In this document: positions 1 through 14,600 of the stretch, one piece after another
How the letters are laid out: each line of letters starts with the position of its first letter
How positions within the stretch are numbered: the first letter of the stretch is position 1
Origin: Flaccisagitta enflata
Lineage: Eukaryota
Length of the DNA: 64,000 bases
Reading direction: 5' to 3'
Assembly (NCBI GenBank): GCA_965153355.1
Contig: OZ231126.1
Location: forward strand, 41,230,001 to 41,294,000
Translations under genes and position numbers: made by a program
Notes under the pieces: generated by a model
Told to the model about the DNA's origin: nothing
Databases searched by the model: none
Seen by the model: the letters and a program-made list of their open reading frames with translations, nothing else

Positions 1-3000
1 CATTGATGGGAAGTGGGGTTTTTGTCATTTTTTTCTTCAAAAACCAAGAAAATTAGAACTTTTGAAAAAAACATTCTCTGTGGCGTAAATTTTATTACGG
101 CTTTAAATTGAAAAAATTCGCATTTTCAAAAACATCAGATTTTACTAGCGTCTGATGTTCTTCATTTTTTCATTTTTTCATTTTTTTCCATGCGAATTTA
201 AAATTTACAGCAGGACTTGTTATGCAAAATTTATCTCATCGAAATCGATTATAATCAGAAATAGTTATCTACAGTCTAAGGACCTTCAGCTACCAAGCAA
301 TTATACTATCTGAAAGACTAAAATAATGCATTTCACTTCCCCGCTTAAAAAAAATGAATTCTGATCATTGAATTTTGAGTGTCTCAAGTCGGTAGCGCAA
401 ACCAATTATTCATTAGAATGGACACATAGGTTGAAATCTGTGAAAATGTGTATCTTGCAATATTTAGTGTATGTGTGTGCGTGTGTGCGTGAGCGTGTGT
501 ATGTATATGTGTGTGTGTGTGCGCGTGTGTGTGTGCACGCGTGTGTGTGTGTGTGTGTGTGTGTGTGTGTGTGTGTGTGTGTGTGTGTGTGTGTGTGTGT
601 GTGTGTGTGTGTGTGTGTGTGTGTGTTTAGCAAACACAGAGATGAGATGTGTGTACATTCCATCCAAAATGCCAAAAGATTTGTGGAGGAGCCCCTGATT
701 CTGTCATGGAAAGAAAGAAAGGAAAAGAAAGAAAGAAAGAAAGAAAGAAAGAAAGAAAGAAAGAATGAATGAATGAATGAATGAATGAATGAATGAATGA
801 ATGAATGAATGAAAGAATGAAAGAATGAAAGAATGAAAGAATGAAAGAATGAAAGAATGAAAGAATGAAAGAAAGAATAAAAGAATACAGCAAAGAAATG
901 AAAAATAAACAAAAGCGTTAGATGGTCAGCGCTACCCGTTGCCCCTATGTGAGTCCCGTTGCCCCTATGTGAGTTGGTGTGGGTGTGAGGTTGATAGAGG
1001 GGCAGCGGCCCTGAAGGGGCCAATGATCGATGCTGTCTTTATTGCAGGTGGGATGTGAGCCTCAAAGCTGAGATGTGAGCCTCGGGGCTGGGATTTAAGC
1101 CTCGAGACTGGGATTTGAGTATCAAGACTGTGAAATTTGAGCCTCAAGGCTGGAATTTGAGCTTCAAGACTGGGATTTGAGCCTCCAGACTGGGATTTGA
1201 GCTTCAAGACTGGGATTAGACTTTTAGAGCCTCCAGACTGGGATTTGAAACTCACTCCATTCAACTTGATCTCTTTTTGGGCAGCGGCCCCAAAGGGCCG
1301 ATGTCGTGTAAAACACGGGGGGGGGGAGGAGAATTTCCAGACATCCATTCTTCCGTCAGTCCTTTTGTCCATCCATCCATCTGTACTTCTGTCCTTCCAT
1401 CCGTCCCCCCCCCATTGGCCATCAAGGCCTCAAATTTGCCCTCCCAGTCATCAATTTAACCCTCAAGGCCTCAAATCAGCCTTCCAGGCTTCAAATCAGC
1501 TCCCCCCAGCCTCAAATCTGACCTCCACACCTCAAATCTGCCCTCCAGACCTTCAATTAAATTCTCCAAGATCAAATCAGCACTCCTGGCCCAAATTCTT
1601 CTCAAACCTCAAATCTCTCAAAGCCTCTATTCTGCCCCCCAGCCTTCAAATATGCCTTCGTTGGCCTAAATCAGTCATCTAAGGCCTGAAATATGCCCCC
1701 TTAGGACGCCTGGGAAATTCCACCTGTTCTACAGGACATTGGTCCTCGTGGCCGCTGCCCTGCTCTAACTCCACTTCACTACCAGCAGGACATCGGGTAC
1801 TGCTGACCATGTGCGATCCTTGGATGACTAGTTTTTCTTAATTGGCTACCGCCTCCGACAAAATTATTTTTTGGTCTTTTACTGTTCATGGAAACCTGAC
1901 TGTAACTAAGAGGGAATCTTGTTTTGGCGGTTAAAAATTTAAAACTTCTCGCGCTGCCCACACACACACACACACACACAAGACACACACACACACACAC
2001 ACACACACACACACACACACACACACACACACACACACACACACACAGATCGTCGAACAGAGCCTATTACTAAGTCGCGGGTCCACGACTAAGAAATGGA
2101 TCGATGTGATTGTGGTAAAAAATGCTTATTTTGAAAATCATCCATAACTTTTTAGAGATACAAATTCGCATCAATTTTTTCGCTAAATTACCCGCAAAAA
2201 CATATGTAATGACTAGAAGAAGTCAAATTAGAATTATGAAAATGTTCAATTTTAACCCCTTATGAATGGCATACGTTTCACCAGCTTAGATCATGTCGTA
2301 CGTAATTGAAGACTTCGTCCTTTCTATAAACCGTAGTAAAAGGCGTTGATAAAAGTTATGCACACCTCAGTTCCGTCTATCGGCGAATCTTAAGGCAGTG
2401 ATCATTGGACTATACTAGTTGTGATTGACTTTACATATCATGATAAAGGCGTCCGTCTGATTTTCAGATAGCGTCGTGGCCATGTGCCCTCCTAGTCTCT
2501 ACTATCAAATCGTACATTATAAGGAAATTGTGGTAAGAATAGCTGTGGTAAGAATAGCTCTTCCGCCTTAACATAATTTTTTTGTCAATGGTCAATGGAC
2601 CTGTCCCACGATTAACGTTTAGAATAAATTAACTTGTCCTTTTGAAAATAAATTTCCCTTTGTATGATGTGCATCAGTTTACCTGAAACCAGGGATGAGC
2701 TGCAGAGACAGCTGTGGGGTCGAGATCCAAAACAACGTACATTCCTTTCTTGTGCGCTGCTCTGAGCAAGTTTTCCAAATCGGCTATGGTCCCCAATCGT
2801 TCGTCAACATCCTTCAAGTTGACGTCTTGAACCACGTCGTCGACAATGATAGCCTTTGTGTAGAGACCGTCGATGTATGCCAATTTATCCGTTAAGCCTT
2901 TTGAGCGCAATGAAAAAAAGGTTGTGTAAGAAATGCAGAAAAAAAATGACCAAAAAGACCAAAGACCAAAGTGAAAGTTTTTTTTTCTTCGGAAAATGGA

Positions 3001-11600: not shown

Positions 11601-14600
11601 TTTCATAATTCAAATTTGACTTTTTCTGGTCATTATATATGGTATTATGAGTAATTCAGCGAAAAAATTGATGCGAATTTGTATCTCTAAAAAAAGTTAT
11701 GGATGATTTTCAAAAAATAGCATTTTTTACCACAATCACGTCAATTCATTTCACTTCTCAGTCGCGAACCCGCGGTAAAGTAAGAGGCTCTGTCTGTCTG
11801 CCGGTCTGTGTGTGTGTGTGTGTGTGTGTGTGTGTGTGTGTGTGTGTGTGTGTGTGTGTGTGTGTGTGTGTGTGTGTGTGTGTGTGGGCAACTGTGTTTT
11901 AGTAATTTCTAACTGCCAAAACACATTCCTCTCTTAGTTACAGTCGGGTTTCCAAATGAACAGTAAAAGACCAAGAAATAATTTTGTTGGAGGCGGTAAG
12001 AGCCAATTAAGAAAAACTAGTCATCCAAGGATCGCACATGGTCAGCGGTACCCGATGTCCTGCTGGTAGTGAAGTGGAGTTAGAGTAGGGCAGCGGCCCT
12101 GCTGGTCCAATGTCCTGTAGAACTTAGGTGGGAATTTCCAGACGTCCTAAGGGGGGCATATTTCAGGCCTTAGATGACTGATTTAGGCCAAAGAAGGCAT
12201 ATTTGAAGGCTGGGGGCAGAATAGAGGCTTTGAGAGCAGATTTGAGGTTTGGAGGGGAAAATTTGAGCCAGGGAGTTGATTTGATGCTTGGAGGGCTAAT
12301 TGAAGGTCTGGAGGGCAGACGTGAGGTGTGGAGGTCAGATTTGAGGCTGGGGGAGAGTTGATTTGAAGCCTGGAAGGCTGATTTGAGGCCTTCAAGGGTT
12401 AAATTGATGACTGGGAGGGCAAATTTAAGGCCTTGATGGCCAATGGGGGGGGGACGGATGGAAGGACAGAAGTACAGATGGATGGATGGACAAAAGGACT
12501 GACGGAAGAATGGATGTCTGGAAATTCTCCTGGCCCCCGTGTTTTACACCCTTAGCCGCTGCCCAAAAAGAGATCAAGTTGAATGGAGTGAGTTTCAAAT
12601 CCCAGTCTGGAGGCTCTAAAAGTCTAATCCCAGTCCTGAAGCTCAAATCCCAGTCTGGAGGCTCAAATCCCAGTCTTGAAGCTCAAATTCCAGCCTTGAA
12701 GCTCACCTCAGTCTTGAGACTCAAATCTGAGTCTCGAGGCTTAAATCCCAGCCTCGAGGCTTCACATCTCAGCTTTGAGGCTCACATCCCACCTGCAATA
12801 AAGAATATAGATCATTGGCCCCTTCAGGGCCGCTGCCCCTCTATCAACCTCACACCCACACCAACTCACATACGGGCAACGGGTAGCGCTGACCATCTAA
12901 CGCTTTTGTTTATTTTTCATTTCTTTGCTGTATTCTTTTATTCTTTCTTTTTTTCTTTCATTCTTTCATTCTTTCATTCTTTCATTCTTTCATTCTTTCA
13001 TTCTTTCATTCATTCATTCATTCATTCATTCATTCATTCATTCATTCATTCATTCTTTCTTTTCTTTCTTTCTTTCTTTCTTTCTTTCTTTTTTCCATTT
13101 TTCTTTCCATGACAGAATCAGGGGCTCCTCCACAAATCTTTTGGCATTTTGGATGGAATGTACGCACATCTCATCTCTGTTTATACAAACACACACACAC
13201 ACACACACACACACACACACACACACACACACACACACACACACACACACACACACACACACACACACACACACACGCGTGCACACGAACACATGCACAC
13301 GCACATGCCCGCATACAGGCACATCCAGCCAACCCTTGCACACACATGCTCAAGCATTCCGTGTTTTAATCATTTCTTTGATGAATAATTGATTTGCATA
13401 CTGAACGAGACACTCAAAATTCAATGGTCAGAGTTCATTTTTTTTAGCGGGGAAGTGAAATGCATTATTTTAGTCTTTCAGATAGTATAATTGCTTGTTA
13501 GCTGAAGGTCCTTAGACTGTAGATAACTATTTCTGATTATAATCGATTTCGATGAGATAAATTTTGCATAACAAGTCCTGCTGTAAATTTTAAATTCGCA
13601 TGGAAAATGAAAAAATGAAAAAATGAAGAACATCAGACGCTAGTAAAATCTGATGTTTTTGAAAATGCGAATTTTTCAGCCTAAAGCCGTAATAAAATTT
13701 ACGCCACAGAGAATGTTTTTTACGAAAGTTCTAATTTTCTTGGTTTTTGAAGAAAAAATGACAAAAACCCCACTTCCCATCAATGGATTTTCATAAAATT
13801 TGACATGCACACAGTCAGGCGCGTCCTTCATCTACAGTAAAAATTTCAAGGAGCTGCGTTGACAGGAAGAGGGATTTTTTGTTAACGGAAGGTGTCAACT
13901 GAAAATTTTCAATTATTGATTATTACCTGACAGTGGACAAGATTTTTTTTTAAAAAGGGGTATATAAAGTTAACATGAAGCTATGCAAAAAATATCATTT
14001 GTATTTCACAAGTATATGAGCTTATATGTACTGCAGAATTGATGAGAATTTTAACACATTGGCGATACTATTCAAATGAAAAAAAAATTCGATAATTTTT
14101 CTCAGCATTTTCCAATGTTTTCTAATATTTTCTTTCTCCTAATTGAATATTTCCGTTGTCAAAACCTTGCCTAGTGGCTATTTTTCTAACAAAGGCCTAT
14201 AAGGGGATAGTAGGGGAGGCAATGGCTTCTTCACCAGGTCAAAAATGATCATTTTGAAGCTCTACGAGGCCATCAATAAGCCTGAATAAAAAGTGCCTTT
14301 TTTCGGTTCTTCATGTCGTACTCTTTTAGCAAGCATATATTACCCTTTGACATTCTAGGTAGAAATAACGTCGCAATAGCGTTTTATTACAATATGCAAA
14401 AAAGTTGCTAGTCAACAACTCTAATATGCTCATTATCTATCTTTCATTCTGTTTCTCTTCCTAGGCGAGTCGTCGGGCTACATCTTCTTCGGATTTCTAC
14501 CGAGATTTCTTCGTGTGGGCGGACGCCCCCTCTTCTTCTTCTTCCTTTCCTCCACCTCCTCCATCGTCTCTTACTCTGAACGACGGCAATCCTGCTTGGG

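Follow-up and report, generated by a model that had tools for sequence, protein, structure and literature searches.

Haplotype false duplications are described as the main type of duplication error in genome assemblies, rising with heterozygosity, and they are diagnosed by half depth, 1-copy k-mers and discordant pairs (Ko et al. 2022, PMC9516828). DNA amplified from tiny organisms can yield palindromic chimeric reads (Warris et al., 10.1101/173872; PMC13265396), and 81.2% of 218 low-coverage HiFi loci met during telomere-to-telomere polishing were GA rich (10.1101/2021.07.02.450803). Here we analyze a 64,000-base stretch of the Flaccisagitta enflata assembly (contig OZ231126.1, positions 41,230,001 to 41,294,000), hereafter the window, numbered from its first letter. 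It is repeat rich and contains no N, and its positions 1-13785 form an inverted repeat in which the front half of a gene occurs twice, head to head. The gene is predicted from its sequence to encode an rBAT/SLC3A1-like amino-acid-transporter heavy chain. We consider it slightly better than an even bet that the copies represent one locus in two haplotypes, fused head to head where microsatellites and an inverted repeat form a natural hairpin-prone cluster.

The locus resembles several described systems and matches none of them fully. With heterotype false duplications (PMC9516828) it shares adjacent, near-identical copies of part of a gene, a highly heterozygous species and a divergence in the allelic range, and annotation would in both cases list a false extra partial gene. 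Unlike in those cases, the copies here are inverted, follow each other without a gap and lie around a natural inverted repeat; the word “inverted” is absent from the text of that paper. Palindromic chimeric reads (10.1101/173872, PMC13265396) likewise join a sequence to its own reverse complement and can mislead long-read assembly, and amplification would be plausible for a marine animal that is plankton sized or detectable in metagenomes. In such reads, however, the arms come from one molecule, whereas here they carry different real variants, so that a second step would be needed, involving either the other haplotype or a haplotype-sorting consensus. Repeat-seeded palindromes have, like this locus, an older imperfect inverted repeat in the center and younger, more similar arms outside it, but they have been studied in yeast and in tumor or cultured cells, where fold-back priming or template switching produces them (PMC10164571, PMC3834830, PMC4689423). 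The window does not demonstrate a fixed germline animal example with two intact gene halves. Finally, sex-chromosome palindromes are maintained by arm-to-arm gene conversion. They too have gene-bearing inverted arms with tracts of near identity; in contrast, the locus described here has only 589 nt between its GA and TC tracts, this sequence is itself partly symmetric, and over much of their length the arms are several percent divergent.

Two arms that differ like two samples

The giant palindrome that had been proposed for 1-13785, running off the left edge, was recovered by a repeat finder, by BLAST and by global alignment, with pairing far above chance. The original prediction put the mirror axis at about 6900 and the arms at 6.6 kb or more; the palindrome stands, but its arms proper reach inward to 6459 and 7378. 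At its outer end the left arm is truncated by the edge of the window, where position 1 still pairs with 13785 at 97% identity. The repeat finder returned the inverted pairs 5495-6249/7586-8340 (755 nt, 96%) and 2544-3224/10633-11313 (681 nt, about 100%, one mismatch), and BLAST chained 1-3850 to 13785-10025, 3675-5543 to 10108-8215, and 5381-6615 to 8442-7225. Global alignment of 1-6950 with the reverse complement of 6951-13785, a comparison that counts in the center and the microsatellite misalignments, gave 6206 matches, 476 mismatches and 59 indel events totaling 421 nt. Per 200 nt, identity reached 100% at 3001-3200 and 5601-6000 (the latter equal to 7834-8230 in the right arm) and fell to 87-90% at 1401-2200. 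Low values sit largely in microsatellites, with a further part in a very high-copy dispersed repeat; much of the arm length is 3-13% divergent, with about 50 indels, and the final ~125 nt of both arms before the microsatellites are identical. The structural differences announced beforehand were all present: perfect tandem duplications of 20, 15 and 15 nt in one arm only, unequal microsatellite lengths, and replaced patches at 6250-6298 and 2045-2110. The insertions of at least 12 nt outside microsatellites all lie in the left arm (5/5), and three of them are perfect tandem duplications.

Independent samples were compared with the right arm. Seventeen runs were listed. X1 and X2 are DNA runs with the same organism label (word shares of 0.52 and 0.35), X16 is a raw-read polyA RNA run from the same study, and the others are marine metagenomes, X3 among them, or metatranscriptomes with small shares. 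Runs X4-X15, four metatranscriptomes with shares of 0.06-0.10 among them, did not enter the evidence. The comparison covered 10311-12625 only (exons 3 and 4 and part of intron 4), and X1, X2 and X3 were available as Logan contigs. Such contigs drop variants, and a single letter in a run is no proof that the other letter is lacking; the argument that each run shows one letter, and that this speaks against paralogy, was dropped for that reason. Arm typing used the unique part, 10311-11480, and sequence beyond about 11500 was excluded as repeat.

Within these 1170 nt the arms differ at seven point sites (10457, 10554, 10631, 10633, 10931, 11201 and 11342), and the left arm also carries two 15-nt insertions. 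This distance, 0.5-0.6%, is about that between X1 and the right arm. The 10 listed pieces lying wholly in the unique part (X1 record 1, X2 records 9-13 and X3 records 17-20; 37426 further pieces stand outside this count) show 47 differences from the right arm in 2274 letters (range 0-6.6%). The species is highly polymorphic, and the divergence of the arms is within the range of the diversity between samples. Differences between the arms do not exceed those between samples and the right arm, which favors two haplotypes; this explanation predicts the observed arm divergence without any free parameter.

The letters themselves point the same way. Among the variant sites listed up to 11491 (n = 14, with 158 further rows outside the count), three carry the left-arm letter (10457, 10631 and 10931) and 11 carry a new letter where the arms agree. 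Arm-specific single-nucleotide polymorphisms had been proposed for a check in RNA and in other individuals: RNA gave no reads on exons 3 and 4, and in other samples three of the seven diagnostic sites occur with either letter. The combinations are mosaic. In an 816-nt contig of X1, 10457 and 10554 show the right-arm state and the 15-nt duplication is absent, but 10931 shows the left-arm letter. X2 matches the left arm at 10457 and 10631 and the right arm at 10931, and X3 matches the left arm at 10457. Since both letters at three sites occur elsewhere, the arm differences did not arise as fresh mutations within a private, recent duplication, and neither are they errors: the arm-diagnostic letters are older variants found in other samples. 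At 10558-10693, X2 keeps two versions (depths of 61 and 51), both of which carry the left letter at 10631 as well as four letters absent from both arms. Because the two versions share the left letter, the arm difference at 10631 is not a fixed paralogue difference; this is a single site, and it is the only observation that speaks directly against such a difference. Among the listed contigs, which drop variants, no sample had more than two clearly distinct versions in unique sequence.

At 11027 (silent, in exon 4), 11212, 11288 and 11290, the arms agree with each other but not with X1 or X2, and at 11027 they also disagree with X3. Around 11027-11290, the two versions in the assembled individual are each other's closest relatives.

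The stretch 11500-12500 and its mirror in the left arm belong to the very high-copy dispersed repeat and are unusable for arm typing. In X1 and X2, summed word depth climbs from about 150 into the thousands at 11500-11790 and reaches 0.26-5.3 million at 11950-12490, the highest value being in X1; the repeat is abundant in the marine metagenome X3 too. An estimate of copy number from contig word depths was abandoned, as these depths are averaged over whole contigs, added up across contigs and raised by repeats; at neighboring unique sites, word depth in X2 ran from 112 to 421.

The center of the palindrome and the origin of the two arms

The original prediction treated the center as a plain spacer. 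Instead, mirrored microsatellites enclose an inverted repeat degraded to ~70% identity, and the spacer is not neutral; this observation is new. Between the (GA)n and (TC)n tracts, in an inner zone whose two sides are 65-70% alike, lie a left-only segment of ~90 nt, an AT-rich core, and an AC-rich tract (6730-6793) with its mirror counterpart, (GT)n at 7110-7224; the microsatellite blocks flanking the core measure 176 nt and 268 nt. The self reverse-complement score of the core is 47, and none of 500 dinucleotide shuffles reached it (mean 14, standard deviation 2.8, maximum 25). Two of 48 AT-rich control segments of the window scored as high as the core, so small natural inverted repeats are not rare here. 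A copy of other window sequence was considered as the source of the spacer and discarded, 6636-7109 matching only itself when compared with the rest of the window; a 33-mer of the inner zone had no match in the metagenome contig collection. The anatomy therefore has two ages, with near-identical arms around an older, decayed central repeat. This is what would be expected if an older short inverted repeat had seeded fold-back copying, in the germline or in the test tube alike, and the anatomy alone cannot separate the two origins.

The original prediction had left a choice between an inverted gene duplication and two haplotypes joined in inverted orientation. Both are still live and the evidence leans to the latter: an assembly mistake is somewhat more likely than a true gene duplication. 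Most likely the left arm does not represent a second gene; it would probably be the 5′ half of the same gene as it stands on the other haplotype, inverted and attached to the real locus in the course of sequencing or assembly. The true locus would then be a single-copy rBAT-like gene with a hairpin-prone cluster upstream, in the order (GA)n, AC-rich tract, ~70% degraded inverted repeat, (GT)n and (TC)n. Such a cluster can break long-read contigs and promote template switching by fold-back. One haplotype may then have become connected to the other in reverse complement, through a chimeric fold-back molecule or through a misjoin at the complementary GA and TC tracts, the broken contig perhaps being extended by a fold-back read from the other haplotype. 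If the assembler retained both versions, allelic differences would pass for paralogue differences. The location of the joint supports this proposal: the inner ends of both arms are long GA and TC microsatellites able to pair around the hairpin-prone core. That each individual has one copy per haplotype, and the manner of the joining, we infer rather than observe.

Several findings weigh against a joining of haplotypes. No assembly gap separates the copies. The mirror symmetry passes through the center in degraded form, for which an older natural palindrome is at least as simple an explanation. The mosaic of letters in X1 could result from the collapse of two paralogues, and true paralogues could be compatible with the contig data, given that contigs drop variants. 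Finally, random haplotypes do not predict that the larger insertions should all fall in the left arm (two-sided p of about 0.06), and error-prone fold-back synthesis explains this bias better.

A true inverted duplication seeded at the same repeat, counting all its forms, is a serious possibility to which we give distinctly less than even credence. At that same level of doubt, the locus would be a germline inverted duplication of at least 6.4 kb, with two intact 5′ halves, or two whole rBAT-like genes, head to head and about 2.5-3 kb apart. The better of the two forms, though we think it unlikely, is a fairly young germline event, in which a broken or stalled strand would have folded back at the inverted repeat and the complementary GA/TC microsatellites lying upstream of the gene, so that the 5′ part of the gene, and perhaps more, was copied in reverse. 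Two head-to-head copies around the old repeat would have resulted, the arms having since diverged or come to share polymorphisms through exchange. The contrast between the identical arm ends and a center that is 65-70% alike is what repeat-seeded fold-back copying predicts, and inverted repeats are reported as seeds of large palindromes and inverted duplications (PMC10164571, PMC3834830, PMC4689423). The junction lies in gap-free sequence, exons and splice sites are intact in both copies, and the larger insertions are distributed as if from error-prone synthesis of the left arm. However, the arm divergence equals ordinary between-sample diversity, which two haplotypes predict with no parameter to adjust; both letters at three diagnostic sites exist in other samples; the same letter stands at 10631 in both retained X2 versions; and the listed contigs of no sample exceed two clearly distinct versions.

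A still less probable form of duplication is an old natural palindrome, the arms of which were homogenized by arm-to-arm gene conversion while the center alone escaped and decayed. It would account for a symmetry that is unbroken from the axis outward and for the jump in identity at the microsatellites, as well as for long tracts of near identity (a single mismatch across the 681 nt of 10633-11313, and no mismatch within 5601-6000); the letters shared by the arms at 11027, 11212, 11288 and 11290 fit exchange within a chromosome. These private letters are equally well explained by two related haplotypes of one individual, however, and the divergence and indels found over much of the arms are far above those of palindromes maintained by conversion. 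Moreover, the distance between the arms in the unique stretch is about that between X1 and the right arm and not much smaller.

A fold-back artifact of a single molecule, with arms differing by sequencing or consensus errors only, draws on the frequency of palindromic chimeric reads after whole-genome amplification (10.1101/173872, PMC13265396) and on the hairpin-prone center, but we reject it as scarcely credible, the arms differing by substitutions, replaced patches, tandem duplications of 12-22 nt and large changes in microsatellite length, and the left-arm letters at 10457, 10631 and 10931 recurring in independent samples, which means that the arm differences are real variants and largely refutes an error-only origin. 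The assertion that a fold-back artifact would give no discrete arm differences is correct for a single unprocessed molecule only; it would fail for a fold-back read from the other haplotype or for a haplotype-aware consensus of a false duplication.

The SLC3 heavy-chain gene and its surroundings

The right copy continues into a complete gene, and the coordinates of its exons and of the other features are collected in Table 1. Its seven-exon model was guided by a full-length homologue, P0001 (697 amino acids), which is the closest one collected and yet is only 50% identical even over exon 5. Joined, the seven exons give 2094 nt, or 697 codons with one terminal stop. Like rBAT (SLC3A1) and 4F2hc (SLC3A2), the product has an SLC3A2_N region, a single membrane helix followed by an SPKC cysteine motif, and a GH13-like ectodomain; it is unlike them in its low identity to the closest collected homologue and in an N-terminus that is unsettled. 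PF16028 (SLC3A2_N) matches exon 2 at an E value of 1.6e-12, the match to exon 3 being below the curated cutoff, and a hydrophobic stretch crosses the exon 2/3 junction as the only membrane helix. PF00128 (alpha-amylase, GH13) matches exons 4, 5 and 6 at E values of 4.8e-9, 3.3e-13 and 2.4e-9. P0001 matches rBAT (SLC3A1) structures at 1.1e-54 in two stretches and 4F2hc at about 2e-36, and its “LSPKC” past the membrane helix aligns with “LSPKC” of the rBAT chain 6yup_A. Both copies in the window encode “VSPKC” at the equivalent place. We take this cysteine to be the residue that forms the disulfide with the SLC7 light chain.

Exons 1-4 are intact in both arms, as predicted, and keep all their AG and GT splice sites. 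The coding differences between left and right copies amount to 3 of 717 bases, exactly the R/S, silent and Q/K changes that had been named; by residue number the two replacements are R53S and Q167K. Exons 5-7 and a nested F-box open reading frame (ORF) are present once in the window, where only the right copy is seen to continue. Upstream of the acceptor of what had been named exon 1 there is no ATG in frame, so that the start codon and N-terminus are unsettled. A candidate start-codon exon (ATG at 7961, donor after 8017) is in frame and was set aside as unlike the N-terminus of the homologue.

Two splice sites are unusual. The intron after exon 5 appears to begin with a GC donor at 15276 (CAG/GCAAGT), the sole join that preserves both the frame and the LLPG-TP motif of the homologue. 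In the left arm, a perfect 15-nt tandem duplication (3286-3316, versus 10558-10571 in the right arm) repeats the exon 3 donor and creates two identical candidates, the second of which, 15 nt away, would add five codons. This duplication is lacking in the X1 contig and in X2 record 9.

A shared central promoter, which had been part of the duplication proposal, is without support. Among 12.16 million reads of the polyA RNA run X16, a sample of about 6%, none fell on exons 3 and 4 (10311-11246), a result that is mute on expression of the gene; the 70 reads that were placed were all partial fits and all lay in the dispersed repeat at 12417-12572. The SLC3 heavy-chain family is usually broadly expressed. 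The silence of these exons in X16 may reflect restricted expression or an uninformative sample.

Table 1. Positions of the palindrome, its center, the two gene copies and the nested ORF in the window
Feature	Positions	Strand	Remark
Left arm	1..6459	-	Mirror of 7378-13785; exons 1-4 on minus strand
Right arm	7378..13785	+	Exons 1-4 of the complete gene copy
(GA)n microsatellite, left-arm inner end	6460..6635	.	Complementary to (TC)n at 7225-7377
Inner zone	6636..7224	.	About 65% identity in global alignment
Degraded inverted repeat	6820..7030	.	~70% identity; axis near 6925, the exact center
(TC)n microsatellite, right-arm inner end	7225..7377	.	
Right copy, coding exon 1	8486..8699	+	Arg where left copy has Ser
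Right copy, exon 2	9630..9762	+	SLC3A2_N
Right copy, exon 3	10403..10557	+	Membrane helix and SPKC cysteine motif
Right copy, exon 4	10960..11174	+	
Exon 5	14465..15275	+	Beyond the visible palindrome; GC donor at 15276
Exon 6	20845..21172	+	
Exon 7	21669..21906	+	With TGA stop
Left copy, coding exon 1	5062..5275	-	Ser versus right-copy Arg; AG/GT sites intact
Left copy, exon 2	4023..4155	-	SLC3A2_N, start of membrane helix; same as right copy
Left copy, exon 3	3314..3468	-	One silent and one Q-to-K difference
Left copy, exon 4	2683..2897	-	Start of GH13-like domain; same as right copy
F-box-like ORF in intron 5	15930..17738	-	PF12937, E value 1.3e-5; first ATG at 17627

Repeats pervade the surroundings. 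Over the first 30 kb, a microsatellite of at least 90 nt occurs about every 1-2 kb, and arrays of 20-21 nt that are related to the dispersed repeat stand at 1049-1217/12626-12791, 4561-4679/9103-9220 and 18512-18809. A microsatellite-like array of ~1.2 kb at 58270-59520 is of the GAAA/GAAAGAAT type, with related arrays at 709-913, 12932-13107, 34879-35196 and 45076-45398. Further inverted repeats of 435-683 nt and 87-96% identity pair 50111-50793 with 57076-57758, 54644-55078 with 56642-57076, and 51126-51570 with 53961-54407, and a direct repeat pairs 56425-57004 with 56989-57574; all of these, within 50111-57758, are probably copies of a repeated element. A tandem satellite at 61600-63800 has a period of roughly 160 nt and about 14 copies that are 84-91% identical, judged from self-match offsets. 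On the strand opposite to the SLC3 gene, 25061-25300 (minus strand) holds an exon-like fragment of a neighboring gene, corresponding to the C-terminal part of the nucleoside transporter family (PF01733, E value 4.9e-11, profile positions 246-301 of 309).

Consequences for annotation and for palindrome biology

If the two arms are an artifact, annotators of this region would be led to list an additional SLC3 gene, possibly truncated, with two amino-acid changes and a “bidirectional promoter.” The gene family would be inflated, and alleles would be misread as paralogue-specific substitutions. Gap-free inverted joins of haplotypes would then be able to arise at hairpin-prone microsatellite clusters, and the assembly gap, the usual signal of false duplication, would be missing from them. 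If the palindrome is instead real, it would be a clean case of natural palindrome formation seeded by a short inverted repeat, with arms young enough for divergence or sequence exchange to be followed in a very polymorphic species. The small tandem duplications clustered in one arm alone would be the scar of error-prone fold-back synthesis, and the locus would represent a natural, evolutionarily retained case of a mechanism known mainly from yeast and tumor cells.

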